From a virus (taxonomy: Duplodnaviria > Heunggongvirae > Uroviricota > Caudoviricetes), in the IMG/VR virus record IMGVR_UViG_3300032007_004072, positions 74,223 through 138,222 of that record: DNA of 64,000 nt; one strand, written 5' to 3'. The number at the start of each line of letters is the position of its first letter. Position 1 is the stretch's first letter. The position numbers and the translations under genes were made by a program. Below the pieces are notes generated by a model. That model made no database searches. It saw only the letters and a list, made by a program, of their open reading frames with translations, and had not been told where the DNA came from. Positions 12,755 through 63,959 of this stretch are shown in pieces.

Positions 12755-14382
12755 CAGCAAGTTAAGACCTCCACCTCTATAGGTAGGGGATTGACAAAAC
12801 TCTAAAGATATGCTAGAATATCTATAAAGGAGGTGAATATTGTGCATAATCTACAAGACAAGTTTTTAAGATTAGGATTCTTGGAAGAATTAGAAAAAGA
12901 ATTTACTGCTGGGTATGTCTATGAAATATACCCAACTACTGAGCAACGTCAGTATATCCATAAAAATTGTGGCTGTAAACGTCAATTACATAATATATTT
13001 GTTGCTCAATTATATGATTATCTTGAAAGTATAAATTTTAAGTGTGGTTATATTCCTAAAGAATTTGTAAAGAATTTACCTACAGTTAAATCTATAAAAG
13101 AAAAGTTTTCTTATATGAAAGAAGTTGATTCTTTAGCATTGTCTGCCGCAAGATTAGATTTTGTAAATTCTATTAAGAAATATAATGATGAATATGTACC
13201 TAAAGGTAATCAATATAAAAAGAAAGCTCTTAAACAAGTTAAAACTATTGGTAAGGAGCTTACATTTAGAGATTTAAAGGGTATGCCTAAATTTTCAGCT
13301 AAATTCTTTTCTGAACAATCTTTTACTACCAATAATCAAAAAGGTACAGTAAGGTTAGAGGGGTATCTTGGAGAAAGTAGTAGGTACATGGCACTTGTAA
13401 TACCTAAGTTAAAGAATCCAATAAAACTAAGGTATCATCGTGACCTACCAGAAAATTGCAGAATAACCAAAGCAGTTATTAAGCGAATAGGTCAAGATAG
13501 ATATACTGTGTCTTTAATTGTAATATATACTAAAGAGTATGTTACATTAAAACATGATAAAGAAACTTTAGCTAAAGTTAAGGATTATTTAAATAATCAT
13601 AAAGAATTATGTCTTGGATTAGATTATGCACAACAAGGTGGATGTGTTCCTAGCAGTAAGGATAAAACCTTATTAGATAATATATTAGCATCATTTCAGA
13701 AGACATATCACAAGAATGAATGTAAGCTTAAAGCATTACAAAAGAAACTTGCGAAGAAGGAAAAACAAAGCAATGCGTACCTAAAGTTGCTTAAAAGAAT
13801 TCAAAAACTTCATAGGAAGGTAGCTAATATAAGGAAGAATGCACTACATATACTTTCTTTTAGGATAGTAAAGCAATTTGCACTAGTTTCTGTAGAAGAT
13901 ATTGATTTAAGAGCAATGTCACAGACACTTAAATTAGCTAAAAACTTGTTAGACAATGGTTTCGGCATGTTTAGGTTAATGCTAGAGTATAAACTTAAGC
14001 ATAAAGGCATGATCTTTGTAAAGATAAATAGGTTTGAAAAATCTACACAAAAATGCCATGAGTGCGGTTATATAAACACATTGACTAAAAATTTAGCTAT
14101 TAAGGAGTATGATTGTGGTGGTTGTGGTAAGCATCTATACAGAGATTATAATGCATCTTTGAATATTAGAGATATTGGAATATCTATGATTGAACCTAAA
14201 TTATTTGAGGAAAAGCAAAATAAGTTTTCTTTAGCTAATTTGCGTTCAAAAAGGGCAAGGAACTTGTCCTAAAGTCTAATGGGAGTTATCATATATATCT
14301 ACGTATAGGACAAGTTCTTATGCTTAGATGGTGAAGCAATGATAATTAGAAGCTCCCACTTCTATAAGTGGGAGTAGTTCAC
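12755..14382 (+). mobile_element. non-autonomous IS200/IS605-family element (tnpB only)
   Basis: Left-end hairpin CCTCCACC-TCTATA-GGTAGGGG after TTTAT; right-end hairpin CTCCCACTT-CTAT-AAGTGGGAG then TAGTTCAC; no target duplication; no tnpA in window. Confidence 0.88.
12833..14272 (+). CDS. tnpB: TnpB RNA-guided nuclease
   Basis: N-terminal Y.IYPT.EQ..., RuvC D (LGLDY), E (VEDIDL), zinc finger CHEC/CGGC, RDYNASLNI; start may be GTG 12842. Confidence 0.93.
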   Translation: MNIVHNLQDKFLRLGFLEELEKEFTAGYVYEIYPTTEQRQYIHKNCGCKRQLHNIFVAQLYDYLESINFKCGYIPKEFVKNLPTVKSIKEKFSYMKEVDSLALSAARLDFVNSIKKYNDEYVPKGNQYKKKALKQVKTIGKELTFRDLKGMPKFSAKFFSEQSFTTNNQKGTVRLEGYLGESSRYMALVIPKLKNPIKLRYHRDLPENCRITKAVIKRIGQDRYTVSLIVIYTKEYVTLKHDKETLAKVKDYLNNHKELCLGLDYAQQGGCVPSSKDKTLLDNILASFQKTYHKNECKLKALQKKLAKKEKQSNAYLKLLKRIQKLHRKVANIRKNALHILSFRIVKQFALVSVEDIDLRAMSQTLKLAKNLLDNGFGMFRLMLEYKLKHKGMIFVKINRFEKSTQKCHECGYINTLTKNLAIKEYDCGGCGKHLYRDYNASLNIRDIGISMIEPKLFEEKQNKFSLANLRSKRARNLS

Positions 14383-40723: not shown

Positions 40724-41839
40724 TTACCATTTACTATGTATATCTTTAAGCAAGTTTATCCACTCATCATAAGATAAATTTTCTATATCTTTAAAAAATT
40801 CATTGTTCCCACTTTTAATAATATTTTTCATTTCTTTATGAGATAAATTATATAATGTTTCTAATTCTTTATATGTATAATTATTATCCCCTATATAAAA
40901 TTTATGACCTTTACGACAGGAGCAACCTTTATTAGGAACACGATTTATTAAGTTATATACGCACAACTTATGGTTACTACCACAAATATTACATTTTCCT
41001 ATTGCACTTGAAGTATCTATTTCATCTAAACACACTATACTAAATTCTCTAATATTCTTACCAATATACTCTAAATATTTTCCTCTATACTTAGGTATAG
41101 GCATTGACTCTGCTTCTTCTAGTGTATAACCATCCAACATTCTTTGATGTATTACATTATATCGTAAGCCTTTACGTTCACAGTATTCTATTAAAAGTTC
41201 ATCTTCATTAGCCCACAAATTTCTATCTTGATTTCTATTCTGCATACTTTTAGGAATCCAATGGCAATTTTCTTTGAAATAACCTATATCATTATTTTTT
41301 CTATCAATAGAGGGTAGGTCATTAGGATTATCTAAACAAGCTAAATACTCTTCATACATATCATTTTGAAAGTTTTCAAAATCTAACCATGATTCTTGTA
41401 TCCCATGTTTGTGATAATATTTATAGTTAATATTTTTAGGATTGGTACACCTATCTACCATACTATACCATATACTATAAAATCTTAAATCTTTAATAAT
41501 TCCTCTCTGCCTATTTATTCTGCCTCCATTTTCTTCATAATAAGCAAATATATCCTCAAAGGAATCTCCTGTTTTATACCTTCTATTATATACCATGGTA
41601 GGACTTATTCTTTTCCTCCTACAGTATTCTAGTACTGACACTAATTCACCATCACAATCAATTAAATATTTTGTACAAGTAGATTTATCCTCTTTTGTTT
41701 CATAATAAGCTACTGCTTGTTCATAGGTTTCTCCGTATTTTTTAACCCTATATTGTACTGCACAATAGTTAAGCTTCTTTCTTTTACAATATTCTTTGGC
41801 AGGAATCATTTCTCCATCTAATTCTAAATAGTGTGCCAA
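40724..41839 (-). CDS. HNH-like endonuclease with HTH repeats and C-terminal zinc motif
   Basis: RFYSIWYSMVDRC...SIDRKNNDIGYFKENCHW...QNRN; TTG start; TTGACT promoter at 41899-41871. Confidence 0.8.
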   Translation of the reverse strand: MAHYLELDGEMIPAKEYCKRKKLNYCAVQYRVKKYGETYEQAVAYYETKEDKSTCTKYLIDCDGELVSVLEYCRRKRISPTMVYNRRYKTGDSFEDIFAYYEENGGRINRQRGIIKDLRFYSIWYSMVDRCTNPKNINYKYYHKHGIQESWLDFENFQNDMYEEYLACLDNPNDLPSIDRKNNDIGYFKENCHWIPKSMQNRNQDRNLWANEDELLIEYCERKGLRYNVIHQRMLDGYTLEEAESMPIPKYRGKYLEYIGKNIREFSIVCLDEIDTSSAIGKCNICGSNHKLCVYNLINRVPNKGCSCRKGHKFYIGDNNYTYKELETLYNLSHKEMKNIIKSGNNEFFKDIENLSYDEWINLLKDIHSKW

Positions 41840-45554: not shown

Positions 45555-45817
45555 GGCTATATCAACTAAGTCATAATGCTAATGTGGTTCATTTAGATTC
45601 TGCATACATTTTATTCTCGTACAACGAACCTATAGCTATGTATAATGATGATGATACTTTGTTTTTGGTAAAAAATTGGGATAAGTTTTCACAATCAACA
45701 AATAAACATACCTATGAATTTTTAAGACAATACACGGCATATAAAACAATAAGAACAAAGAGAGAAGTAGAATCCTTAATAAAAAATAATTCTATAAAAA
45801 TAGTTGACAGTTTGTAG
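45551..45817 (+). CDS. hypothetical protein
   Basis: LFSYNEPIA...FSQSTNKH. Confidence 0.68.
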   Translation: MRLYQLSHNANVVHLDSAYILFSYNEPIAMYNDDDTLFLVKNWDKFSQSTNKHTYEFLRQYTAYKTIRTKREVESLIKNNSIKIVDSL

Positions 45818-45837
45818 AAAGTATGGTAATATAAGAG

Positions 45838-45937
45838 AGTAGGTTCTTTTGCATTGGGAACTTACAAGAATCTTAATAGATTCATCTCCTTTTAGAGAAA
45901 TATCCTTAGTAGTCCTACCTACTAGGGATATTTTTTT
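45838..45937 (+). ncRNA. candidate sRNA-1
   Basis: TTGACA 45804-17-TAATAT; hairpins; CATCTCCTTTT; 13-bp terminator stem plus T-run; no RBS-ORF. Confidence 0.65.
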
Positions 45938-45974
45938 ATCTTGACAAATAAAGCTAAATATGCTATATTATAAG

Positions 45975-46050
45975 TGGGCTATGGCTTCAACACTTTTCTT
46001 CTTTTATAATTTCAAATTACAAAAAAGGCTCTTGACAAAGGGCTTTTTTT
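45975..46050 (+). ncRNA. candidate sRNA-2
   Basis: TTGACA 45941-17-TATATT; 5' hairpin, U/C-rich linker, terminator. Confidence 0.5.
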
Positions 46051-46091
46051 GTGCTATAATATTGTAAATTATTAATAGAAAGGACAAAACA

Positions 46092-46187
46092 ATGGAATAT
46101 CTAAGCATTTTAGACGTAAGAGGAACAAATATAATCTGTCACTATAGGGGAAGGCTTATAGTGTTGTATATGGGGTATTCACTCTAA
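46092..46187 (+). CDS. 31-aa peptide (not in track)
   Basis: Promoter 46032/46055; AGAAAGGA RBS; MEYLSILDVRG... Confidence 0.5.
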   Translation: MEYLSILDVRGTNIICHYRGRLIVLYMGYSL

Positions 46188-46241
46188 AAATAATTTCAAA
46201 AAAAGTGTTGACAAGGGCTTTAGAATTTGCTATACTAAGTA

Positions 46242-46397
46242 TGTAATCGAGATGGGGAAGCCTTGATTGCGGTAACTACAAATAGCTATTAGCAAGTCAG
46301 AAAACTAATAGCAAAAGCATAAGATGTATGTATCCGATACAGATTATGTAAGACTGTGTTCGGAGAATAAGCAGAGGTGGGGATCTCTGCTATTTTC
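46242..46397 (+). ncRNA. candidate sRNA-3 (four hairpins)
   Basis: TTGACA 46208-17-TATACT; three stems plus GCAGAG/CTCTGC terminator; no RBS-ORF. Confidence 0.65.
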
Positions 46398-46483
46398 CAT
46401 ATATGAAATTCACAGAAAATTCTAGTTAAATGATAATTAATTTTATGACTTGACAAATTTGAAAAAATGTGTTATAATATATA

Positions 46484-46590
46484 TAGAAGGTGGAAATCAT
46501 CTTCTATCATTATCATTACTTACACTATACACACGTGTAAGTTTAACATTACCGTTTGTCATTGGGGGAGTAAAATCCCCCTAAATTTTT
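46484..46590 (+). ncRNA. candidate sRNA-4
   Basis: TTGACA 46450-17-TATAAT; two stems plus GGGGGA/TCCCCC terminator. Confidence 0.62.
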
Positions 46591-46621
46591 AATTAAAAAC
46601 ACTAATGAGGTGATTATATAA

Positions 46622-46861
46622 ATGAGCGTAGTAGATGACCTTACCCTCTTTGTGCGCAAATGTTACAAAGAGGCTTTTCAGAAGTATTATTTTGCACAAA
46701 AGACAAACAATACAAATGATGTATTATTCTTTTCGGGACAAGTAACATTTTTAGAGCAAAATTTTGCAACATATTTAGGACTAGATGTAGATAAACAAGA
46801 ATTAAAAGATTCAGCTAAAGAAGAAGTTGATTCTTTATTAGATTTTTATAATTCTCCTTGA
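46622..46861 (+). CDS. hypothetical protein (similar to 49832..50086)
   Basis: YK.A...YYF...Y..G...FLE.NF. Confidence 0.68.
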   Translation: MSVVDDLTLFVRKCYKEAFQKYYFAQKTNNTNDVLFFSGQVTFLEQNFATYLGLDVDKQELKDSAKEEVDSLLDFYNSP

Positions 46862-46891
46862 CAAATTGTTAAAATGATGGTATATTAAACA

Positions 46892-46970
46892 TGTACCTTC
46901 CTTTAACTCAATTCAACATAATCAACTTACAAGGGAAAGAGCCTACGAAAAATAATCGTAGGCTTTTTTC
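46892..46970 (+). ncRNA. candidate sRNA-5, antisense to early-gene leader
   Basis: TTGACA 46858-17-TATATT; ACCTTCCTTTAACTC...AACTTACA; terminator GAGCCTACGA/TCGTAGGCTT. Confidence 0.68.
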
Positions 46971-47041
46971 TTTTTTATACTTGACAATACTTTTAGTATG
47001 TGTTATACTTAAAGTACATTAACAGAAAGGAATGATAAACA

Positions 47042-47236
47042 ATGACACTTGAAGAAATTAAACAAGCAGTAAACAGTGGTAAGCATGTGTATTGGTGTAA
47101 TAATAATTATGAAGTAATTAAAGATAAATATGACCAATGGTTTATTGTATGCTATATTGGTAATACTATTGGACTTACTTGGAGAGATGGCAAAACTCTT
47201 AACGGAAAAGAAGAAGAATTTTATATTGGAGAGTAA
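47042..47236 (+). CDS. hypothetical protein
   Basis: MTLEEIKQAV..GK.V.W.N..YEV; own promoter. Confidence 0.72.
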   Translation: MTLEEIKQAVNSGKHVYWCNNNYEVIKDKYDQWFIVCYIGNTIGLTWRDGKTLNGKEEEFYIGE

Positions 47237-47322
47237 AAAAGTTCTTGACACTTAAAGTAAAATATGGTACTATATAAGCATAGAAGAAATAAACACCTTG
47301 TATTAAAAAGGAGAGATTGATT

Positions 47323-47673
47323 ATGTTAGAAGTAAAAATGGAAATGAGCTTTGAAGACTTGAAAAATAATTGTTGGAGTGGAGCACTTGACAGAATTAAA
47401 GAGATTGAAGAAAAAGGGCTTGATGACACCTTAATGTCTTACCTTGAAGAAATCTTCTGTGATGAAATTCCTGAAATGGTAACTGTCAACGATTGGTTGT
47501 GGTTCGAGGCCGATGATTGGATTCTTAGAAATACAGAAGTAGAAGACAAGGAACAAGTTAAAAAAGAACTTGACGATGCAGGAAAATGCTATGATGAAGA
47601 TGAATTTAATGAACTTGACATGGATGATTATTCAACCATTGAAGAAGTAATGGATGAATTAAACATTGATTAA
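47323..47673 (+). CDS. very acidic protein, DNA-mimic candidate
   Basis: 39 D/E in 116 aa; WSGA...VNDWLWFE motif. Confidence 0.7.
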   Translation: MLEVKMEMSFEDLKNNCWSGALDRIKEIEEKGLDDTLMSYLEEIFCDEIPEMVTVNDWLWFEADDWILRNTEVEDKEQVKKELDDAGKCYDEDEFNELDMDDYSTIEEVMDELNID

Positions 47674-47844
47674 ATAATATTGACTAGGATGAAAAATTCC
47701 TAGTCTTTATTGCTTTTTATTACTTTCAGAATATTTATAATAGAGCGATTTTCAGACAACTTCTTTGTGGACATTTGTATTTTTCCTCTTGACTTTTTGA
47801 TTTATTTATGCTATACTAAAAGAAAAATTAAAGGAGTAATAAGT

Positions 47845-48888
47845 ATGAATTATTTAGACGCAAAGAGCAATGGTAAACGTAAATCAAAAAATCAGCGATT
47901 GCGTAGAATATGGTATCAAATGGTGTATAGATGTTATAATTCTAAGTGCAAAGCGTACCCTTTATATGGTGGTAGGGGAATTAAAGTACAAGAATCGTGG
48001 AAAGATAATTATTTTAACTTTGAAGATGATTTATACGATAGTTATATTAAACATGTGGAAGAATATGGAGAGAAAGACACAACTTTAGATAGAATTGATT
48101 ATAACGGAAATTACGAATTACCCAATTTACGTTGGGCTACACAAGAAGAACAAGCAAACAATACTAGTCGCAACTTTATAGTCATAGATGGATTAAATTT
48201 AACACAATTTAGTAATAAGTATGATTTACCTGTTGCAACTGTATGGGCAAGACTACATTATGGGTGGACAATAGAAAAAATTATAACTACACCTGTTAGA
48301 AAATTATCACCTAAAATTTATGCACCAACAGGAGAAAGTATAGAAGAACTTGCTAAAAGATTGAATATAAATAAAAGTACTATAAAAAGTAGGCTTAATA
48401 GAGGTTGGACATGGGAAAAAATATTAAATACTCAAGTTAGAGAGTCAATTGTTGCTCCAACAGGAGAATCTTTGCAAGAAATTGCAGATAAGTTTGGTAT
48501 TTCTCCTCACACGATAAAAACACGGCTTAATAGGGGTTGGACATGGGAAGAAGCTTTAAGTAATCCAGTTAGAAATATTTCTAAAATTGTGTTATCAACA
48601 GGGGAAACAATAGCAGAATTAAGTGAGCGTACAGGTATTTCTAAAAAGGTAATAGATACTAGGTTTCATCATGGTTGGTCAGTAGAAAAAATAATAAATA
48701 CACCTGTAGAACCTAGATATAAATATTATTTACCTTGTAATAAGTCATTAAAAGAACATTGTAATAAAAATAATTATAATTATAAGACAATAGTTAACTA
48801 TATTAAAAAATATAACTTAGAACCTCATGAAGCATTAGCCAAATATTTAGAAAATAAACAAAAAAGAAATAATAAAAATACCCCTTGA
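47845..48888 (+). CDS. HNH-like endonuclease with five C-terminal HTH repeats
   Basis: RLRRIWYQMVYRC..YGGRGI..TLDRIDYNGNYELPNLRWATQEEQANN; RL..GW..EKI..TPV repeats; start trimmed to ATG 47845. Confidence 0.85.
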   Translation: MNYLDAKSNGKRKSKNQRLRRIWYQMVYRCYNSKCKAYPLYGGRGIKVQESWKDNYFNFEDDLYDSYIKHVEEYGEKDTTLDRIDYNGNYELPNLRWATQEEQANNTSRNFIVIDGLNLTQFSNKYDLPVATVWARLHYGWTIEKIITTPVRKLSPKIYAPTGESIEELAKRLNINKSTIKSRLNRGWTWEKILNTQVRESIVAPTGESLQEIADKFGISPHTIKTRLNRGWTWEEALSNPVRNISKIVLSTGETIAELSERTGISKKVIDTRFHHGWSVEKIINTPVEPRYKYYLPCNKSLKEHCNKNNYNYKTIVNYIKKYNLEPHEALAKYLENKQKRNNKNTP

Positions 48889-48919
48889 CAATCTTTTTAG
48901 TATTTGCTATACTATAAGC

Positions 48920-49048
48920 AGTTAGAGAACACCAAATCTCTAACTAAGCATATATTTTTATCCCTTTCTAATGTCTTTGATTGAATCAAGGACGCTCAGC
49001 TTTTAACCTTACATGGATTATGGCAGGAATAAATTTCCTGTCATTTTT
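48920..49048 (+). ncRNA. candidate sRNA-6
   Basis: TTGACA 48885-17-TATACT; two stems, ATCCCTTTCT and AACCTTACA, GCAGG terminator. Confidence 0.65.
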
Positions 49049-49093
49049 CATTTTCCCTATTGACAGGATAATTGCTATATGCTATAATGAGTA

Positions 49094-49190
49094 CATAAGG
49101 TTGAAGTGAAACAGCCTTACACCTACCTTTCATAAAACTCTTTTAACTGCAAGATTGGGCTTAAAGAGCGAGGACTTTTTAAGCCTTTTC
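49094..49190 (+). ncRNA. candidate sRNA-7
   Basis: TTGACA 49060-17-TATAAT; 5' hairpin, ACCTACCTTTCATAAAACTC, terminator. Confidence 0.65.
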
Positions 49191-49334
49191 TTGTGTCACA
49201 AACAATGGAGGTCAATTAATTTGGAAACTACAGAATACCTACAAAGATTAAGACAGGAAATTAACAATGGAATAACATACAAAGATATTGAAAAAAGTAC
49301 TTGACAAGCAAAGCGAAATTTAGTAATATAATAT

Positions 49335-49412
49335 ATGGATTTACACATTCCATTAAATAGCTGATAGTATCGACTCCCATAAAATCCCTATTCGATACTA
49401 TTAGCTATTTTT
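49335..49412 (+). ncRNA. candidate sRNA-8 (18-bp stem, C-rich loop)
   Basis: TTGACA 49301-17-TAATAT; stem 49356-73/49392-409, loop CTCCCATAAAATCCCTAT, T-run. Confidence 0.65.
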
Positions 49413-49475
49413 ACTTGACATTACTTTTATATTGTGGTATACTTATAGTATCAAAACAAAAGGAGAGATTAAACA

Positions 49476-49760
49476 ATGATAGAAATTAAACCTTGGTATT
49501 CAATATTAAATAGTGATGCACCTGCAACATATAAAGATATGAAGGGAATATCTATCGGTTATGATGTATATTTAGCATTTAAAGATACTGCTTACTATTA
49601 TGAAGATATAACAAAAGAATCTTTTTACGAAATAATAGATGATAAATTTATAGAAAAATCTTCATTACCACAGAAATTAAAAGGTAAATACTCATACTAC
49701 TATACAATTAAAGATAAAGAATTTATAACTGCATATAAAAAACATCCTAAAGACTATTGA
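49476..49760 (+). CDS. hypothetical protein
   Basis: Cassette promoter plus AAAGGAG RBS. Confidence 0.68.
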   Translation: MIEIKPWYSILNSDAPATYKDMKGISIGYDVYLAFKDTAYYYEDITKESFYEIIDDKFIEKSSLPQKLKGKYSYYYTIKDKEFITAYKKHPKDY

Positions 49761-49831
49761 CAATACTTTTAGAATATGATAATATATAAGCATAAAGAAA
49801 ATACTTCGACTTAAAGAAAGGAAGATTTATT

Positions 49832-50086
49832 ATGACTTACAGTAATGCTACACAGGAATATAAGAAAGCATGTTTCAGCTATTATTTTAATCTTAATTTA
49901 CCTAAAGATGAAGAAGGAAAAGTAAATGACAATGTAAACTATTATTTAGGCATTAAAGAATTCCTTGAAAAGAACTTTAGAGACATTACCAACAATGAAG
50001 ACAATAGCGTATATGAAAGATGGGAAGAATATAGGCAAGAAGCAAAACAACAAGCAAAAGAACTCTTAAAAGTACATAGATTGTAA
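49832..50086 (+). CDS. hypothetical protein
   Basis: Cassette promoter, RBS, terminator. Confidence 0.68.
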   Translation: MTYSNATQEYKKACFSYYFNLNLPKDEEGKVNDNVNYYLGIKEFLEKNFRDITNNEDNSVYERWEEYRQEAKQQAKELLKVHRL

Positions 50087-50215
50087 ACAATAAAGGGCTG
50101 AAAAAGCCCTTTTTATCTTAAAAAATAAAAATTAATGCTTGACAATATAACGATATCATGTTATACTTTTAATATAAGATAAATACTTCAATAAGAGAAG
50201 AAGGAGAGATTAACA

Positions 50216-50464
50216 ATGAAAAAAGAATTTGCATTAAATTTCTACAATGGGGAATATGAAAAGGCTTCCAATCTTGTAGAGATGGAAAAACAGAATCTTA
50301 TCCGTAACATGGAATCTATGCTTGAAGAAATAAAAAAAGATGGATTTGTAAATAGTTATAAATGGGAAAAAATACAAAAATCATATGAAGAATATCAAAG
50401 ATATAGAAAAGAAAGTACACATAGTATTGAAATCTATAATATTATTAAAACCTTAGAAGATTAA
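50216..50464 (+). CDS. hypothetical protein
   Basis: Cassette promoter, RBS, GCAGG terminator. Confidence 0.68.
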   Translation: MKKEFALNFYNGEYEKASNLVEMEKQNLIRNMESMLEEIKKDGFVNSYKWEKIQKSYEEYQRYRKESTHSIEIYNIIKTLED

Positions 50465-50606
50465 AAGAAAGCAGGGAAGAAATTCCCTGTTTTTTATTGC
50501 TTAATATTATTGTCAAACTTTCAGACAACTTAAATAAAAATAGGTATTGACAATAAAACAGTATTTTGCTATAATAATAGTAACAAAAGGAAAGGAGAGA
50601 TAAACA

Positions 50607-50813
50607 ATGACTAATTCTGAGAACTTAGCATATTTAGTATATAAAGATGTACAGGAGATACTTGTAAAAAATAAACATAATAACAATACATATTTAGCAG
50701 GAATTTCATTAGCAGGAAATAACATAGAATTATACAGTATAGTAGATAATAGCGGTGAAGGAGACTTAATAATTTCTATCAAAGATTTTGATACTAATTA
50801 TGAATTTATTTAA
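50607..50813 (+). CDS. hypothetical protein
   Basis: Cassette promoter and RBS. Confidence 0.65.
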   Translation: MTNSENLAYLVYKDVQEILVKNKHNNNTYLAGISLAGNNIELYSIVDNSGEGDLIISIKDFDTNYEFI

Positions 50814-50896
50814 AAATACCTATTGACAATAAAACAATACTATGGTAAGATATAAGCATAAAGAAAATAACTCGAATTAAAGAGAGGAAGATTAAA

Positions 50897-51208
50897 ATGA
50901 CTAATGAAGAAAAATGGGCGAATACACTTGAAAAACTGCATGATATTGAACCTGCCCCATTTAACCCTAATTACAATGAAGAACATTCAAAAGTAGCAGA
51001 ACTTCAATCAAAATTTATGTATAAAATTAGAAAAGAACTGTCAGAAATAGAAACAAATGACAATGAGGAAATACTAAATAAAATAGAAGATTTATGTTAT
51101 GTTTATACCTGCGCTATTCATAATATGTATGGTTATAGTATTGAAAATGGTAAGATTAAACATACAACAGAAAGAGGTCAAAAACTAGCTGACATTTTTA
51201 ATAATTGA
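50897..51208 (+). CDS. hypothetical protein
   Basis: Cassette promoter, RBS, GCAGG terminator. Confidence 0.68.
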   Translation: MTNEEKWANTLEKLHDIEPAPFNPNYNEEHSKVAELQSKFMYKIRKELSEIETNDNEEILNKIEDLCYVYTCAIHNMYGYSIENGKIKHTTERGQKLADIFNN

Positions 51209-51378
51209 TACATAGGCAGGGAATATTCCCTGTCTTTTTAGTCTGTAAATTGTAAGAAAATTCTATTTAAATGACAATTTAATGGTAGCTATTCTCAATA
51301 AAAATATCATAATTTGCTATTGACATTATTTTTAGTATGTGCTATACTATAATCAAGATAAGAAAAGGAGAGATAAAA

Positions 51379-51459
51379 ATGTTAGACGTATTAGTATTAG
51401 CTATTGGCTATACCATTGTTTTTACAAGTTTCAAACATATTTTTACAAAAAAGTATTGA
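51379..51459 (+). CDS. 26-aa single-TM peptide (not in track)
   Basis: Own promoter, AAAGGAG RBS; MLDVLVLAIGYTIVFTSFKHIFTKKY. Confidence 0.6.
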   Translation: MLDVLVLAIGYTIVFTSFKHIFTKKY

Positions 51460-51529
51460 CAAGCTAAATGCTATATGCTATAATAAGTACAGAAAGTTGA
51501 TTAAGAACTAAAAGAAAGGTTGATGTAAA

Positions 51530-51931
51530 ATGGATACTTTGAAAAACTTTGTTATTGACGCTATGATTGATGAACTTAGTGCAATGGAAGATAGAGAAAT
51601 CTATGGAGCAGACCTCGGTTATGAGATTTTTAGTGAAGCAAATTGTAATGGTAGTTATACCTGTAATGCACTTGAAGCAGAAAATTTTATTAAGGAATAC
51701 TTTTCAGATTTTGGGGAAGTAGTAGAGGATATCAAATTTAATTTAGGTGCAGAGAATATTCCTAATCCATTTACAGAAAGTGAGCGTTTCCAAGTTGTTA
51801 TTATGCTTGAAATGAGTTCTTCACTTGTTGCACAAGTATCTATTGTAGATGAAAATTGGAACAATGAGTTTATGCTTACTAAAGAAGTAATCGAAAAAAT
51901 CACAAAAGAACTTGAAGAAATGAAAGACTAA
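51530..51931 (+). CDS. acidic protein, DNA-mimic candidate
   Basis: D/E-rich; N.NGSYTCN..EA..FI.EY. Confidence 0.68.
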   Translation: MDTLKNFVIDAMIDELSAMEDREIYGADLGYEIFSEANCNGSYTCNALEAENFIKEYFSDFGEVVEDIKFNLGAENIPNPFTESERFQVVIMLEMSSSLVAQVSIVDENWNNEFMLTKEVIEKITKELEEMKD

Positions 51932-52129
51932 AATATATAAATAGGTCGTGGGTCGCTTGTTACGACTCACGGCTTATTATTTTGTAAAGAATTCAGAAAA
52001 TTCTATTAGTGTGAAAACTCCATATATTCAGCAAAATTATTATCATAAATTTTTAATAAATCTATTGACATAATAACAATACTATGCTATACTATATACA
52101 GGTTAAGAGATAGAAAGGATTGATTAACA

Positions 52130-52336
52130 ATGACTAATTACGAAAGACTTTTAGAACTTGAAAAACAGGACAATACAGAGATTTTAGCAAAAGATAATTA
52201 TGGTAATGAATATGTTATTAACAGTACAGTAAAAGGAGAAGTGGCGTTATTTCATGTAAACTATGCAGATGGTTCTAAGGATAAGCTAATTAGTAAAGAG
52301 GATTTTAATAGTAATTATACAATAATTTCCTATTGA
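52130..52336 (+). CDS. hypothetical protein
   Basis: Cassette promoter 52065/52088. Confidence 0.65.
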   Translation: MTNYERLLELEKQDNTEILAKDNYGNEYVINSTVKGEVALFHVNYADGSKDKLISKEDFNSNYTIISY

Positions 52337-52391
52337 CAATATAACGACAATATGTTACAATAAGTATAGTTAAAAGAGAGGAGAGATAAAT

Positions 52392-52613
52392 ATGCGTTAT
52401 GCTATTTATAGAACAATGGATAAAAGTAAAAAGAATCATGTTATTCTTAGTCATGATGATATTAAAGATATGTATTATGTAACCTATAAACTTTATGATA
52501 AGAGCGAAGTATTTGAATATACTCATTATAACCATGCTTGTTATAAGTTTGATACTATTCATAAAACTTTTAAGGAACTTTTTCCAAAAACACTCTTGAC
52601 AAATGTTAAATAA
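52392..52613 (+). CDS. hypothetical protein
   Basis: Cassette promoter; GAGAGGAG RBS. Confidence 0.62.
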   Translation: MRYAIYRTMDKSKKNHVILSHDDIKDMYYVTYKLYDKSEVFEYTHYNHACYKFDTIHKTFKELFPKTLLTNVK

Positions 52614-52670
52614 TCTGTTATATTATAGGTATAGTAAATAACTCGATTAAAAGAGAAGGAGAGATTAACA

Positions 52671-52937
52671 ATGAAAACTTATATGGTAAATGAGCTTGAT
52701 GTTTGGAAAGATATTGAAGGTTATACAATCAATGACGTAATGAGAGATTGTGCAAAGATTGAACTTGAAAATCCATACAATGTAAGGGAAGTATTAAAGA
52801 AATTAAGAGAACACTATAATTTACAAAATGGCAAGTATACAACAAACATTAAAGAATTTTGTGACCCAGCAGTATTTGAAGTTATCAATAGAAAAACAGG
52901 TGAATATGTATTGCAATTAGAACTTGTAAAAGAATAA
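52671..52937 (+). CDS. hypothetical protein
   Basis: LDVW.D.EG.Y..ND motif; GCAGG terminator. Confidence 0.7.
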   Translation: MKTYMVNELDVWKDIEGYTINDVMRDCAKIELENPYNVREVLKKLREHYNLQNGKYTTNIKEFCDPAVFEVINRKTGEYVLQLELVKE

Positions 52938-53113
52938 AGGAATAAGGCAGGGAAACCTGTCTTATTTTAATGTTTTAAATAGTTAGAAAATTATGGTTTT
53001 CAGACACTTTATTTCTAAAAGGAAAAATAAATTTCAAAAACCTATTGACATTATTATTGTTATATGCTACAATTACATTGTAAGGTTGATTAAGAGTTAA
53101 AAGAAAGGGTTGG

Positions 53114-53506
53114 TTGGTTATGAAAATTCATGTTAAGTATGTATATGTAAATGGTGTAAGTTTCTTTGCTTGTGCAGGTGGTGGTTATTATGTACATACA
53201 CCATTTTCAATGGTAGAGTATTCCAAAGGAGATAAAAAGATTTATTATATGGGGCTGAAACAGACCACAAAAGATGAATGTAACAAAAAATACTTAGAAT
53301 TAAAACATGATTGTAAACATATAAAAGGCAAGAAGTTTGAACGAGAAATAACAGAATATGATATAACAATGGAAGAATTAGAAAAGCAACTCATGAAAGG
53401 CTATGATGAATATACATGTTACATAGATGATTATAATCAAGAACAAGAAGCAATTAAGCATAATAAAGCTATATTAGCTAAAATAGAAGCAATTAAAGAA
53501 TTGTAA
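53114..53506 (+). CDS. hypothetical protein
   Basis: Cassette promoter 53045/53068; conserved leader. Confidence 0.68.
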   Translation: MVMKIHVKYVYVNGVSFFACAGGGYYVHTPFSMVEYSKGDKKIYYMGLKQTTKDECNKKYLELKHDCKHIKGKKFEREITEYDITMEELEKQLMKGYDEYTCYIDDYNQEQEAIKHNKAILAKIEAIKEL

Positions 53507-53676
53507 GAATAGGGCAGGAGAAATCCTGCTCTTTATTAGTTTGAAAAGTTTTCAGAAAATTGTGGTTTTCAGACACTTTCAACGACCATAAAAAATATTT
53601 CAAAAACCTATTGACATAATTAGTGCTATATCTTATAATATAGTTGTAAGGTTGATTGAGAGAAAGGTTGATACTT

Positions 53677-54159
53677 ATGAAGTGTTACAAGTTGTTTAGA
53701 TTAAAGGATAATCAGTTATATCCACTGTATGTATTAGCTAATGAGCCTATTCCTGTAGGTGTATGGCTTGAAGCTAAAGAAGGAATAAAAGCAAGTGACG
53801 GGAAACATGTAAAGTCAAGATTAGGTAATCTTTCATATCGTCCAGGATTCCATTGCTCTGATTATCCTGTAGCGACCCATATCGGAAGTAAGAAGAATAA
53901 AACAGACATTAAACCTAGTTTTAGACCTAAAAATCAAGTTTGGGCTGAGTGTGAGATTAAAACAGATATACACTATACAGACTACAAATCATTAAGGGAA
54001 GTACCTAAAAATGGTTATTATAGGTTCAAAACAAATGCTAACATGTATGGTAATTGGTTGATTGCAGGAAATATGAAAGTAAACAGAATACTAACAGATA
54101 AAGAAGTGTATGAAATCAATAGTAAAACAGGAGTACACGATTTACCAAGAGAAGAATAA
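53677..54159 (+). CDS. conserved hypothetical phage protein
   Basis: YKLFR...LYPLYV...RPGFH...VWAECE...GYYRFKTN; start ATG 53677. Confidence 0.72.
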   Translation: MKCYKLFRLKDNQLYPLYVLANEPIPVGVWLEAKEGIKASDGKHVKSRLGNLSYRPGFHCSDYPVATHIGSKKNKTDIKPSFRPKNQVWAECEIKTDIHYTDYKSLREVPKNGYYRFKTNANMYGNWLIAGNMKVNRILTDKEVYEINSKTGVHDLPREE

Positions 54160-54332
54160 GAAATAAGAGCAGGGTAAGACCTGCTCTTTATTGATTTATA
54201 AAAATTCAGAAAATTGTGGTTTTCTGACACTTCTTTTAATACTTGCAAAAATAAAATAAAAAATGTTACATATAACTATTGACATATAATATTAGTTATG
54301 GTATACTAAATACAGAAAGTGAGTTGATAACA

Positions 54333-54593
54333 ATGTTTGAAAAGATATGTAAATGTTGTGGTAAACCATTTACTACAGACAATAACAGAAAAAGACTCTG
54401 TAATACTTGCAAGGAACACAATAGAGAAAAACACGCTAAAGAGTATTGTGTTAGATACAGTAAAGAGAAAAAATGGGTTATATCTATTGATAAAGAAGAT
54501 AATAAAATGCTTGAAAAAATTTCTTCTACTACAGGTATGAGTAAAACTAAAATTATTCATGTATTGCTTGAAAATTTTATGGAAAATATTTGA
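54333..54593 (+). CDS. zinc-ribbon plus RHH-like protein
   Basis: CKCCGKPF...LCNTC then ISIDKED..ML.......GMSKTKII..LL. Confidence 0.72.
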   Translation: MFEKICKCCGKPFTTDNNRKRLCNTCKEHNREKHAKEYCVRYSKEKKWVISIDKEDNKMLEKISSTTGMSKTKIIHVLLENFMENI

Positions 54594-54673
54594 AAAACCT
54601 ATTGACATTATTCTATAAAGTGTTTATAATATAAGTATAGTAAGTTATGAGTTAAAAGAAAGGATTGATTAAA

Positions 54674-54964
54674 ATGGCTAGTGTAAAAGTATATCCTAAT
54701 TGGAGAGGAATTAAAGGTATTCGTTATGTTTACAATGGTAGTTGGTCAGATTGGAATTTAATATACAAATCTTATGTATTTACAGGGAAAGACATAGAAG
54801 ACGCATTATGGGAAAACTTTTTAGAAGATACAAACCATAAAGACAATGAAGCAGGTAATGAAGAAGTAGAAAAAGAATTTAATATGTACTTAGAAGAAAA
54901 TGCAAAACCCTATTTAGATGATTGTATTTGGGGAAAATGCTATTTAGGTAAATTTAAGTATTGA
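54674..54964 (+). CDS. WRGI-motif protein
   Basis: Paralog of 31608..31901. Confidence 0.75.
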   Translation: MASVKVYPNWRGIKGIRYVYNGSWSDWNLIYKSYVFTGKDIEDALWENFLEDTNHKDNEAGNEEVEKEFNMYLEENAKPYLDDCIWGKCYLGKFKY

Positions 54965-55147
54965 ATATGCAGGCAGGGAGAAATCCCTGTCTTTTATTAG
55001 TGTTTAATTGTCTGTTTTCAAGAATTATCTGTCAATTTCCATAAAAATATTTTTATGAAATTACTAATTTGTTATTGACATTATTTTATATGTATGTTAA
55101 AATAAGTATGTAAGTTGAAGTTGATTAATAGTTAAAAGAAAGGTTGA

Positions 55148-55483
55148 TTGATTATGTTTACTGTATGTGTAGAAAATTGGATTAACGAAAAGGAATTAGT
55201 AGTAAAGTGTGAAAGCAAGGAACAAGCAGAAAATGCACTTAAAATCATTGTGAATAACTTTTTAGAGGATTTTCTTATTGATAGTACTATGGAAGAATTT
55301 AATAAAGGTTTTGGGGAATATGATAGTATTATCAAAGAAGGAAAATTTATTATCCCCTATGAAGCTACTATGTATATTGACAATATGTTACCACAGGAAG
55401 TAGAAAAATTAGATAAAACACCTAATAATTTAGGTGGTTGTATGGTTATGACTTATAAGAAGTTTGTAGAAGAAAATATGTGA
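55148..55483 (+). CDS. acidic hypothetical protein
   Basis: Cassette promoter, conserved leader, terminator. Confidence 0.65.
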   Translation: MIMFTVCVENWINEKELVVKCESKEQAENALKIIVNNFLEDFLIDSTMEEFNKGFGEYDSIIKEGKFIIPYEATMYIDNMLPQEVEKLDKTPNNLGGCMVMTYKKFVEENM

Positions 55484-55655
55484 TAATAGAGAGCAAGGCA
55501 GGGAAGTCTTGCTCTTTATTGGTTTATATTATTTTCAGAAAATTGTGGTTTTCAGACACTTTCAATGTGTGCAGAAAAGACAGGTGTAATTTTTTTCTTG
55601 ACTTTTTGATTTTTATGTGATATACTAAAGTAAAAATCAAAGAGAGGCGGTAATT

Positions 55656-56426
55656 TTGGCAAATTTAATTGAATTCAATGGAAAAATAGCGTGTGTAACT
55701 GAACATTGTAAGGATTTAGGGATAAGTCCTAATACTTTATGGACAAGAAAACATAGAACAGGAGAATCAGATTTAGAATGTTTAAAATATTACCAAGAAA
55801 ATGGAGTAAAATCTGTAATTAGAGCTAGACCTAAACATAGGCATAGCTATAAAATAAAAGATAAAAGATTGTATAGTAAATGGTATAGTACAAAAGAAAA
55901 ATGTGAAAATCCTAAACATACTGCCTATCCCCGTTATGGTGCAAAGGGAATTAAAGTTTGTGAGCGTTGGCAAAATTATGAAAATTTTGAGAACGATTTA
56001 CTTGAGTCCTTTCTTAAACATATTGAAGAATATGGGATAAAAAATACAACATTAGACAGGTATCCAGACAAAGAAGGGAATTATGAACCTAATAATGTAC
56101 GTTGGGCAACAATGAAAGAACAACAAAATAATAAAACAAATAATAGAATGATTACCAAAGAATTAAATGTGACACAATTTGCTGAAAAATATAATATTCC
56201 TTATAGTGTTGTATTAGCAAGATTAAATGCTGGATGGTCAATAGAAAGGATTATAAATACACCTATAAAAAAATCTAAATACTATTTACCTTGTGGGGTA
56301 TCATTAAGACACCACTGCCTAAAGAACAATTATGTTTATACAGCAATAATAAACTATATCAAACAATATAATTTAACACCAGATAAAGCACTTGCTAAAT
56401 ACTTGAAAGAAATAAAAAATGAATAA
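55656..56426 (+). CDS. HNH-like endonuclease with HTH repeats
   Basis: RLYSKWY...YGAKGIKVCERW..TLDRYPDKEGNYEPNNVRWAT..EQ.NN; TTG start. Confidence 0.85.
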   Translation: MANLIEFNGKIACVTEHCKDLGISPNTLWTRKHRTGESDLECLKYYQENGVKSVIRARPKHRHSYKIKDKRLYSKWYSTKEKCENPKHTAYPRYGAKGIKVCERWQNYENFENDLLESFLKHIEEYGIKNTTLDRYPDKEGNYEPNNVRWATMKEQQNNKTNNRMITKELNVTQFAEKYNIPYSVVLARLNAGWSIERIINTPIKKSKYYLPCGVSLRHHCLKNNYVYTAIINYIKQYNLTPDKALAKYLKEIKNE

Positions 56427-56592
56427 ATTTAATTTAGGGCAATTTAATTTTGCCCTGTTATTTTGTTAGGAAATTTTCAGAAAATTTAAAAGATAAATAA
56501 AATTCTGTTTGTCGAACTTCTTTTTCTAATTTCAAAATAACCACAACTAAATTTTTACTTGACAAGCTAACAATACAATGTTATAATATAGT

Positions 56593-56683
56593 TACAGGTT
56601 AAGATAAAACCTGTTAAAACCTTTTTATAAACTCAATTAACTTACAGCATTGCAGGCAAGAATAAAATTCTTGTCTGTTTTGC
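56593..56683 (+). ncRNA. candidate sRNA-9, antisense to early-gene leader
   Basis: TTGACA 56559-17-TATAAT; ACAGGTT/AACCTGT stem; AACCTTTTTATAAACTCAATTAACTTACA; terminator. Confidence 0.68.
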
Positions 56684-56771
56684 TATATTTATAAAAAACC
56701 TATTGACATAACTCTTATTATTTGTTATACTATATATAGAGTTAAGGAGTTAAAGAAAGGAAGTTGTTATT

Positions 56772-59508: not shown

Positions 59509-59590
59509 TATAAAGGGGAAAATTCCCCTTATTTTTTTATAAAAAATACTTGACATTATTTATATTATACTGTAGAATATAGTCATAAGG

Positions 59591-59845
59591 TTGATTAAGG
59601 GTTTTAAGAAAGGATTGGTAACTATGAAAAACTATGACGCTATCGTTGGTAACTATGGGATTGTAATGGAATATAATAGTAAAGGAAAGGTATTTACAGG
59701 GCATATAGATTATATAGGCAAGGCAAAAAATAAAAGAAGTGGTAACGGCTTTTTTGTTAGCTATGAATATAATAATATACGCTATGATTACCCTGAATTA
59801 GTCACTAAGCAAGTAAATAATTACTTGTTTAATGTTCTTTTGTAA
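59591..59845 (+). CDS. hypothetical protein (start about 59624)
   Basis: Cassette promoter and conserved leader. Confidence 0.62.
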   Translation: MIKGFKKGLVTMKNYDAIVGNYGIVMEYNSKGKVFTGHIDYIGKAKNKRSGNGFFVSYEYNNIRYDYPELVTKQVNNYLFNVLL

Positions 59846-62552: not shown

Positions 62553-62792
62553 GAATAATAGCCTACTTTTATTTCGTAGGCTATTTAATTGCATAAAATC
62601 AATTTCTTGTGGGTAGAGTTGTCAAATAATCAGAAAATTTAAAAGATAAATAAAATTATGTTTATCAGAAAATTTAATCAGTGGGCAAGAAAAATAAAAT
62701 AAAAAAATCTAAAAAACCTATTGACATTATTCTGCTATTAGTCTATAATAAAAGCATAAGTTAATCAAGAGTTTTGAAAGGCGGTTTTAATT

Positions 62793-63119
62793 ATGAAAAA
62801 ACACATTACTATTAAGGAAGCTAAAAGAATTGCTAACTATGGCGTAGGGTATTGTAACTTGCAATATTTATTTAATTGCCTTGAACCTTTCGCCTATACA
62901 GCAACTAACACTTATGGGTGGCGGTCAGATTTATATCGTGTGGGCGGTGTAGTAATTAGTACAGGTTATGCACCACAAGGCGAATCAATTCCTTATGAAT
63001 TAACCCAAAAATATGAAAATCTAGCTATGAAGGTTATAAGCAAAAATCCTGACTATCACAATAGAAAAGATAAATTAGACAAGTTAATTGATGAATTTTT
63101 AGCAGAATTGGAGGCATAA
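62793..63119 (+). CDS. conserved hypothetical phage protein
   Basis: GYC.LQYL...YGWR.D.Y...ISTGY.P; promoter 62721/62744. Confidence 0.72.
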   Translation: MKKHITIKEAKRIANYGVGYCNLQYLFNCLEPFAYTATNTYGWRSDLYRVGGVVISTGYAPQGESIPYELTQKYENLAMKVISKNPDYHNRKDKLDKLIDEFLAELEA

Positions 63120-63333: not shown

Positions 63334-63734
63334 AAACAACAATAAGCAGGGAATAAAAACCCTGCTTTTTAATTTATCAATTACAATACAGGGATAAAAA
63401 CAATAAATAAAACCCTGTCAGACTTCCTATTTATGCCCTATCGTGAAGGATAACAACAATTAGGTATAATTATATACCTTGTCTAAAAAATACCCTAAAA
63501 TAGCCTTATTTTTAGTAAATTGTACGACTATCAGAGTTTTCTGTCAATTCCTTGAAATTTTCAGAATATTTAGATTGTGTGAAAATTTATTCTATTGGCA
63601 AAGTTTTCAGAAAATTCAGTGTCTTTTCAGGAAGGACATTCTATGAAAAAGTTTTTTATTGTATACATAAAAAAGTACTTGACTTATTTTATGTATTGGT
63701 GTAATATATAAGCATAGAGTTAATCACGAGTTAA

Positions 63735-63959
63735 TTGAAAGGATTGATTAAAATGGTAAGACTGTGGAGATTTAAAGAATATCAAGTTTGGAAAAATGGA
63801 GAATTTACTGGCGCGGTTAGGTTGTATGACCTTACAAAAGAAGCAATAACTGAGGCATTGGGAATAGAGGTTACTTGCTTAAAGGATGACCACCCACACC
63901 ATGATATCTTACAGGTTAATGACAATATTCGATTAGAGTGGTTTGCAACAGTATATTAA
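63735..63959 (+). CDS. hypothetical protein (start about 63752)
   Basis: Cassette promoter and leader. Confidence 0.6.
   Translation: MKGLIKMVRLWRFKEYQVWKNGEFTGAVRLYDLTKEAITEALGIEVTCLKDDHPHHDILQVNDNIRLEWFATVY

Follow-up and report, generated by a model that had tools for sequence, protein, structure and literature searches.

To our knowledge, the factors described as shutting off phage early genes post-transcriptionally are mostly proteins, such as RegB and RegA of phage T4, and the phage small RNAs (sRNAs) whose roles are known belong almost without exception to temperate phages and act on one or a few targets. RegB is an endoribonuclease that recognizes GGAG and inactivates many early mRNAs at the Shine-Dalgarno (SD) sequence. 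In Firmicutes, the csRNAs of Streptococcus are sibling sRNAs of the anti-SD type. LhrC1-5 of Listeria are multicopy sibling sRNAs of the UCCC type (cited in PMC12282133). The c4 RNA of phages P1 and P7 blocks a single ribosome-binding site (RBS) and exposes its complementary bases in unpaired regions (PMC12197685). In T4-type phages with promoter-early stem-loops (PeSL), recombination between cassettes shuffles genes (Arbiol et al. 2010, PMC2839356), and in Staphylococcus phage K (~148 kb), RNA-seq revealed small non-coding RNAs (sncRNAs) in the terminal-repeat early region, among host-takeover genes and with no assigned mechanism (PMC9241854). Here, we analyzed a 64,000-nt stretch of an uncultured phage (hereafter the window), bases 74223-138222 of the 147,994-bp IMG/VR virus record IMGVR_UViG_3300032007_004072, which carries nine short promoter-terminator units (u1 to u9). 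Three of these, u5, u7, and u9, look like sibling trans-acting sRNAs directed against a leader shared by many early mRNAs of the phage itself, and u6 probably belongs with them. Coordinates of units, leaders, and open reading frames (ORFs) are window positions unless marked as genome or L-contig positions.

The nine −35 boxes were found at exactly the positions given in a preliminary description of the window, and the promoters match the consensus at 10-12 of 12 positions with 17-nt spacers, mostly with an extended −10 TG. A hairpin followed by a T-run lies 75-155 nt downstream of all nine promoters, also as described. The long and more AT-rich terminator stems of u1, u2, and u8, each with its T run, were detected in RNAfold only; the terminators of u3, u4, u5, u6, u7, and u9 are among 44 terminator-like sites found in a scan for which 4.5 were expected from shuffled sequence. 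With RNA ends predicted from a start ~7 nt past the −10 box, the putative RNAs are 77-157 nt long. RNAfold recovered the proposed layout of 5′ hairpin, unpaired segment, and terminator for most units, but not for u5, which has no 5′ hairpin. In seven of the nine units the next full promoter follows within 1-50 nt, with no SD or start codon in between. A crude scan of the rest of the 148-kb genome for strong promoters without an SD-led ORF gave no further convincing promoter-terminator unit. Searches of the whole window against Rfam 15, including the C4, LhrC, and other sRNA and leader models, gave no match at gathering thresholds, and at E ≤ 1 the stretch 45700-49500 gave sub-threshold, terminator-driven matches only.

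Frames of 11-42 codons start in u1, u2, u3, u4, u6, u7, and u9, so that the units might be taken to encode short peptides. None of these frames has an SD, however, most of the longer frames end within or beyond the terminator hairpin or the next promoter, the micro-frame of u7 differs in length and frame in L021, a strain-level relative, and u5 and u8 contain no frame at all. The units are thus free of RBS-led ORFs, as had been claimed, and a peptide-coding reading, to which we assign next to no probability, was rejected on this ground.

Unit u5 (46858..46976, + strand) consists of a promoter, a predicted RNA of ~84 nt, and a terminator, and an unpaired 5′ stretch of 38 nt (46893-46932) complements the cassette leaders from 5′ UGUAAGUUGA through the SD. 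In u9 (56559..56685, +; promoter and predicted RNA of ~92 nt), a 5′ hairpin formed by the sense leader start on its complement precedes an unpaired seed of 31 nt (56614-56647) that complements the leaders; the terminator comes last. The same order is seen in u7 (49060..49194, +; promoter, predicted RNA of ~100 nt, terminator), where the 5′ hairpin again pairs the sense leader start with its complement and precedes an unpaired CACCUACCUUUCAU...UUAACUG seed. The predicted ~133-nt RNA of u6 (48885..49052, +; own promoter) is arranged as a 5′ hairpin, CCCUUUCU, an internal hairpin, UUAACCUUACA, and the terminator. It contains exact 9-nt and 8-nt blocks complementary to the 53080 leader, and its reverse complement resembles a cassette start, with leader, SD, ATG, and two codons. 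A family of nine had been proposed; paralogy is seen for u5, u7, and u9, perhaps also u6, and does not extend to the other units. Even within this group covariance-model support is weak: the u9 model matched u7 and u5 at E 0.01-0.07 (0.012 for u7), among many terminator-driven matches.

The leader to which these units are complementary had been noted at eight sites, all of which were verified with a profile hidden Markov model (HMM) built from ten leaders. The profile extended the set, with 12 plus-strand copies at E < 0.2, and the leader family appears to span about 12-16 early mRNAs. The complementarity was assessed by dinucleotide shuffling of the exposed seed (150 shuffles per unit) against 37 early leaders, with z-scores for the best target and then for the mean of the top five. 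For u5 the values were −4.5 and −5.0 and for u9 −3.3 and −5.1, with 0 of 150 shuffles as good in either case; for u7 they were −1.8 and −3.0, with 8 and 2 of 150 shuffles as good. When the reverse-complemented units were aligned locally with the leaders, z-scores of 2-3.5 were reached by u5, u7, and u9 only. When the genome itself served as the null, with 24.7k overlapping 45-nt segments covering the whole plus strand and leaders making up well under 1% of them, the seven best sites of u9 and the three best of u5 were all early-cassette leaders, and leaders took ranks 1, 4, 8, and 12 for u7. Among ~225 RBS regions, the leader motif was present in 11 of the 12 best u9 targets. The predicted duplexes comprise 24-30 bp with small internal loops (−22 to −31 kcal/mol) and run from the UGUAAG at the mRNA 5′ end to the GAAAGG SD, positions −45 to −2 relative to the start codon. 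Of the four units described as antisense to the leaders, u5 and u9 thus show real and specific complementarity and u7 moderate complementarity. The computational support for u5, u7, and u9 as candidate sRNAs is solid.

Among the predicted targets, the leader and SD of a 128-aa early gene (53080..53122, +) would be shared by u9, u5, u7, and u6. The best genome-wide u9 site (−23.5 kcal/mol) is the leader and SD of a 160-aa early gene (53646..53679, +), and the second best, also a u7 site, is that of a 108-aa early gene (62756..62795, +), with 28 bp at positions −37 to −2; the fifth best lies in the family member preceding a 96-aa gene (54637..54676, +). The leader and SD of a 109-aa early gene (55110..55156, +) provide the best in-window u5 site (28 bp, −25.9 kcal/mol), and those of a 73-aa early gene (59585..59626, +) the best u7 site (−24.3 kcal/mol). 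The leaders of a 133-aa gene (51491..51532, +) and a 68-aa gene (63718..63755, +) were assigned to the family by the HMM. Just past the window end (genome 138543-143000, 0.3-5 kb beyond it), at least three more cassettes with a UGUAAGUUGAU leader start are present, with a GC-rich hairpin inserted ahead of a GGGAGG or AGGAGG SD; u5 is predicted to pair most strongly with one of these leaders (−31.1 kcal/mol). The products of the 16 leader-family genes are soluble and mostly acidic, 68-160 aa long, with a maximum 19-residue hydropathy of ≤1.64, and Pfam searches gave no families for them. A type I toxin-antitoxin arrangement was rejected because the target proteins are soluble and not small hydrophobic or membrane toxins.

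Three other units carry anti-SD motifs of a more generic kind. Unit u1 (45804..45939, +; promoter with its −35 box at 45804) has a predicted RNA of ~100 nt (45839-45939) in which a pair of 5′ hairpins and an unpaired CAUCUCCUUUUAG segment precede a terminator with a 20-bp stem and a U7 tail. In L021 it is identical over nt 1-97 of 101, the sole difference lying in the terminal T-run. In u2 (45941..46053, +), the promoter would drive an RNA of ~78 nt that leaves a CUUUUCUUCUUUU segment unpaired. The following promoter (46032) has its −35 box within the terminator stem of u2, and the unit is 97% identical in L021. In both, the CU-rich or UCCC anti-SD motifs show no leader specificity beyond composition. 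Unit u8 (49301..49412, +; promoter and predicted RNA of ~77 nt) has a 19-bp terminator hairpin whose 18-nt loop holds CUCCC and UCCCU. It is 94% identical in L021, where stem and C-rich loop motifs are unbroken, and its motif shows no leader specificity, the shuffle test not having been made on the loop itself.

These units raise the question of whether the whole set consists of general anti-SD sRNAs acting mainly on host mRNAs, as in host takeover, or on all strong SDs, the leader match being a side effect of the shared SD. The motifs of u1, u2, and u8 resemble only the 16S 3′ end or are CU-rich or UCCC-like, and the best u1 and u2 targets are canonical GGAGG sites anywhere in the genome rather than members of the leader family. 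Anti-SD 5-mers are three times commoner in the units than on the genome plus strand, one unit in a related contig displays ACCUCCUU in a hairpin loop, and UCCC-type sibling sRNAs of Firmicutes act in this way (LhrC, cited in PMC12282133). For u5, u7, and u9, however, complementarity continues beyond the SD for another 20-30 nt in the upstream direction, as far as the mRNA 5′ end, and the leader family is picked ahead of ~200 other phage RBSs. We regard the general reading as rather unlikely for the set, while u1, u2, and the u8 loop may act more broadly through such motifs.

Relatives were sought as metagenome contigs of the same phage group, reached through a neighboring 432-aa YonV_C-like protein. 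L021, in which u1, u2, and u3 are 97-100% identical, carries u1-u5, u7, u8, and u9 together with one extra unit (L021:4187), and u6 had no homologue in any of the fetched relatives. The L021 copy of u7 keeps the seed, and its terminator stem, of unrelated sequence, also folds as a hairpin. A pattern derived from u9 found five true homologues in metagenomes, plus 22 chance matches. The u9 homologues (in L021 and in the low-GC contigs L017/L026, L023, L031, L046, and L049) occur in at least six contexts at 76-93% identity, with different flanking genes on each contig and the promoter common to all, and every one keeps the 5′ hairpin, the free seed, and the terminator. RNAalifold analysis of seven sequences, representing ~4 types, showed two terminator pairs changed on both sides and two G-U pairs replaced by A-U or G-C, with no break inside the stem; in the 5′ hairpin a C-G pair is changed to A-U between types with pairing kept. 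The anti-SD box AAAACCUU lay outside the search pattern and does not vary among the homologues; the pattern did fix the 3′ part of the seed, whose invariance is therefore uninformative. The u9, u5, and u7 homologues resident in L021, L031, and L023 are predicted to pair best with the leaders of their own contig. Suggestive of seeds that track leader substitutions, a U-to-C change in the L021 u9 seed lies opposite a G in a leader present in L021 alone. Because the module is kept across neighborhoods, its stems show compensatory changes, and its anti-SD box is invariant, u9 behaves like a selected RNA gene.

This conservation bears on the possibility that the units are by-products of recombination between the promoter/leader and terminator modules of the early region, that is, empty or partly inverted cassettes that are perhaps transcribed into RNA without function. 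Compared with L021, L031, and L023, the window shows homologous cassette boundaries and a mosaic gene content, and PeSL-mediated shuffling is documented in T4-type phages (PMC2839356). Judged from its reverse complement, u6 could be an inverted and truncated cassette, and it has no homologue in the relatives; u7 and u9 begin with the sense leader start. A neutral scar should nevertheless decay and not retain an exposed seed, whereas u9 persists in its several contexts with compensated stems and an unchanged anti-SD box, and the u7 seed has been kept while its terminator was swapped for another hairpin. An origin by inversion is, moreover, compatible with later function. We consider a by-product origin without function unlikely.

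Further ORF-less promoter-terminator units with anti-SD-like motifs are present in L016, L017, L020, L050, L051, and L054 (L016:1863, L017:1716, and L050:3537; L020:3697; L054:4122; to which L021:4187 can be added). Compensatory terminator changes are seen in one such unit family, located upstream of the YonV_C-like gene, and in one related-contig unit the seed mirrors the SD-to-start-codon stretch of cassette leaders. In IMG/VR, the 432-aa YonV_C-like protein led only to relatives of 29-36% identity without the motifs, and two small-protein anchors and the u9 pattern found nothing there. A tblastn search with one target protein returned distant marine phages only.

Two of the nine units are not clearly stand-alone, since ORFs without a promoter of their own follow u4 and u7. 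The leader of u4 (46450..46592, +; promoter, leader of ~108 nt) forms an ACUUACA/UGUAAGU hairpin and a G5/C5 hairpin with an interrupted T-run, and is followed by an SD-led 79-aa ORF (46622-46861). Since this ORF lacks its own promoter, u4 is probably its attenuating 5′ leader. In L016 a homologue of the 79-aa ORF stands directly behind a promoter. A recombination boundary is located within u4: compared with window 46450-46592, L021:2287-2500 has two tandem promoters and an unrelated 130-nt insert in place of the upstream part, together with an identical G5/C5 hairpin, T-run, and SD for the downstream gene. Between the u7 terminator and the u8 promoter lies a 27-aa ORF (49221-49304, +) with a TTG start, a GGAGG SD, and a stop codon that falls within the u8 −35 box. 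Its differences from L021 are of a coding type, six synonymous and two non-synonymous, distributed 2, 1, and 6 over the codon positions. Thus u4 and u7 may double as terminator-containing, attenuating leaders of these small ORFs. To extend this to all units, as cis-acting 5′ leaders, attenuators, or riboswitch-like elements of downstream genes instead of trans-acting RNAs, appears very improbable: the two SD-led ORFs and the interrupted T-run of u4 make it plausible for u4 and u7 only, whereas the other seven units run into the next full promoter almost at once, and no Rfam leader or riboswitch model matched above threshold. The remaining unit, u3 (46208..46399, +), has a promoter and a predicted four-hairpin RNA of ~157 nt without a CU-rich motif; this structured RNA is 99% identical in L021 and has no Rfam match.

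In the mechanism we propose, small RNA genes in the early region would each be read from a host sigma-A/sigma-70-type early promoter and end at an intrinsic terminator. Inversion of a cassette leader behind a normal early promoter is the probable origin of u5, u7, u9, and likely also u6, since u7 and u9 begin with the sense leader start on its complement and u6 read in reverse is a cassette start. Each sibling RNA would expose 30-40 unpaired nt that could pair in vivo with the leader of ~12-16 early mRNAs. The duplex, extending from the first transcribed bases (UGUAAG...) through the GAAAGG SD, would hide the SD from the ribosome, and with its 24-30 interrupted base pairs it may also create a substrate for a double-strand RNase. 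The whole bank of early genes would in this way be damped or shut off together. As to timing, the sRNAs would be expected to outlast the early mRNAs because their 3′ ends, and mostly also their 5′ ends, are structured. From sequence comparison, we give about even chances to the central proposal, that sibling trans-acting sRNAs repress a bank of early mRNAs via the shared leader.

Several observations weigh against this proposal. The u6 seed, claimed to be antisense like the others, did not exceed shuffled controls for its top targets (24 of 150 as good), and the top targets of the u1 and u2 seeds were no better than chance. When entire sRNAs were shuffled by dinucleotides and compared by RNAduplex, z-scores were only −0.4 to −1.9, a control we judge conservative because it frees the GC-rich bases of the terminator. 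Pairing between a pyrimidine-rich RNA and a purine-rich leader is, in part, a matter of composition alone. With nhmmer, the leader HMM run on both strands found no minus-strand leader copy and the individual seeds found no leaders, the queries being too short and AT-rich for the method. For u1, u2, u3, and u8 the only homologues are 94-100% identical, and their conservation therefore says little. In the L023 and L049 homologues of u9 the anti-SD box is paired within the 5′ hairpin, and the units in L050, L051, and L054, which are short contigs, show no clear leader preference. Finally, the sRNAs and their predicted targets use the same promoter class, and a simple temporal switch is therefore not obvious.

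The last point bears on a variant in which the pairing is the same and the physiological role would be phage competition, stable sRNAs silencing the early genes of a superinfecting relative that shares the leader (RNA-based exclusion). Co-expression of an sRNA with its own targets fits defense better than self-timing, the leader module is common to all related contigs, and the presence of sRNA cassettes varies by strain, u6 being found only here and an extra unit being present in L021; c4-mediated immunity in P1 and P7 offers a precedent (PMC12197685). The best matches of each seed are nevertheless leaders in the same genome, and no better-matched target was found in another strain, so that we think exclusion as the main role improbable. 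Repression of the phage's own early mRNAs by sibling sRNAs leads to a broader proposal, which we hold tentatively and regard as possible but doubtful: RNA-level control of the early bank throughout the phage clade, with the shared leader as both regulon address and immunity determinant. Since one recombining promoter-leader module serves all the early cassettes, the whole bank could be silenced by a few inverted-leader sRNAs.

The window has a GC content of 26-32%, and nearly all genes are on the plus strand. The DNA polymerase shows 33% identity to Clostridium phage polymerases and the phage encodes an anaerobic NrdD, which together with the low GC content makes an anaerobic, low-GC host likely; the phage itself is probably of the virulent type. 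No relative emerged among GenBank phages in DNA searches for near and distant similarity, whose sole match was a 95-nt HNH stretch, and a tRNA search found none. The part of the window from 45 to 64 kb is an early-type block with ~40 near-consensus TTGACA-17-TAnnnT promoters, all on the plus strand, most of which precede a cassette of short leader, strong SD, small ORF, and terminator. Strong plus-strand promoters number 17 and 14 in the two 5-kb bins of this block against 0-4 in most other bins. Between u2 and u3 lies a cassette with a 31-aa ORF (46092-46187, +), which is probably protein-coding because both of its two differences from L021 are synonymous. Another cassette, with its own early promoter and a strong SD, carries a 26-aa hydrophobic ORF (51379-51459, +), a candidate small membrane peptide whose TGA stop falls within the TTGACA of the following promoter.

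Five paralogous HNH-type homing-endonuclease genes (phrog_3377) are present in the genome (47845-48888, 55656-56426, and 57823-58722 on the plus strand, 40724-41839 on the minus strand, and genome 56302-57483), three of them within the early cassette block. Unit u6 begins at the stop codon of one HNH gene and u9 ~130 nt past another; in L021 a coding cassette directly follows the homologous HNH gene, and the association of HNH genes with sRNAs is thus not constant. A 479-aa TnpB/IS605 OrfB-like protein with Cas12f1-like TNB, OrfB_IS605, and HTH_OrfB domains is encoded at 12833-14272 (+). Past the window end, at genome ~141640-141810, a run of AACAATTTT-like direct repeats with promoter-like matches on both strands may represent an origin or a packaging-related iteron region.

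In full-text searches of the literature, we found no description of a phage sRNA family aimed at a shared early leader. If the proposal is true, a virulent-type phage that controls ~15 early genes by one leader and a set of sibling sRNAs would represent a new regulatory design, and it would suggest a function for the unexplained small RNAs in the early regions of large Firmicute phages. It would also link gene-shuffling promoter-leader cassettes to a regulatory address readable by RNA, and any related phage that superinfects could have its early genes silenced by these sRNAs as well.

Each of the described systems shares part of this arrangement. The likeness to RegB is functional only, an early product acting on many early mRNAs at the SD, and the agent proposed here is an antisense RNA that would recognize an extended leader. 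The sncRNAs of phage K are detected transcripts without a shared-leader target, whereas here the targets are predicted from sequence, and no sequence relation was seen. As with PeSL, a strong sigma-70-type promoter and a terminator stem-loop are repeated in a plastic early region rich in ORFans. A PeSL, however, is a boundary element directly upstream of an ORF, ends in an SD and a start codon, and has had no RNA function claimed for it (PMC2839356), whereas seven of the nine units here have no ORF, SD, or start codon and so lack this ending, and several carry an inverted leader kept as an exposed seed. LhrC and the csRNAs are likewise paralogous RNAs of ~100 nt that present a CU-rich or UCCC unpaired motif between a hairpin and the terminator and occlude the SD. 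They are chromosomal and stress-regulated and use 6-10 nt seeds against unrelated host mRNAs, in contrast to the 30-40 nt seeds found here, which mirror a shared phage leader and have no Rfam match. Like the units described here, for which this is a prediction, the phage-encoded c4 RNA acts in trans, blocking translation of a phage mRNA by base-pairing over its ribosome-binding region. It differs in belonging to a temperate phage, in being processed from an operon transcript, and in having a single target (ant), and no sequence or Rfam similarity connects it to the units of this phage, where several independent promoter-terminator genes carry one seed matching the leader of ~15 genes.

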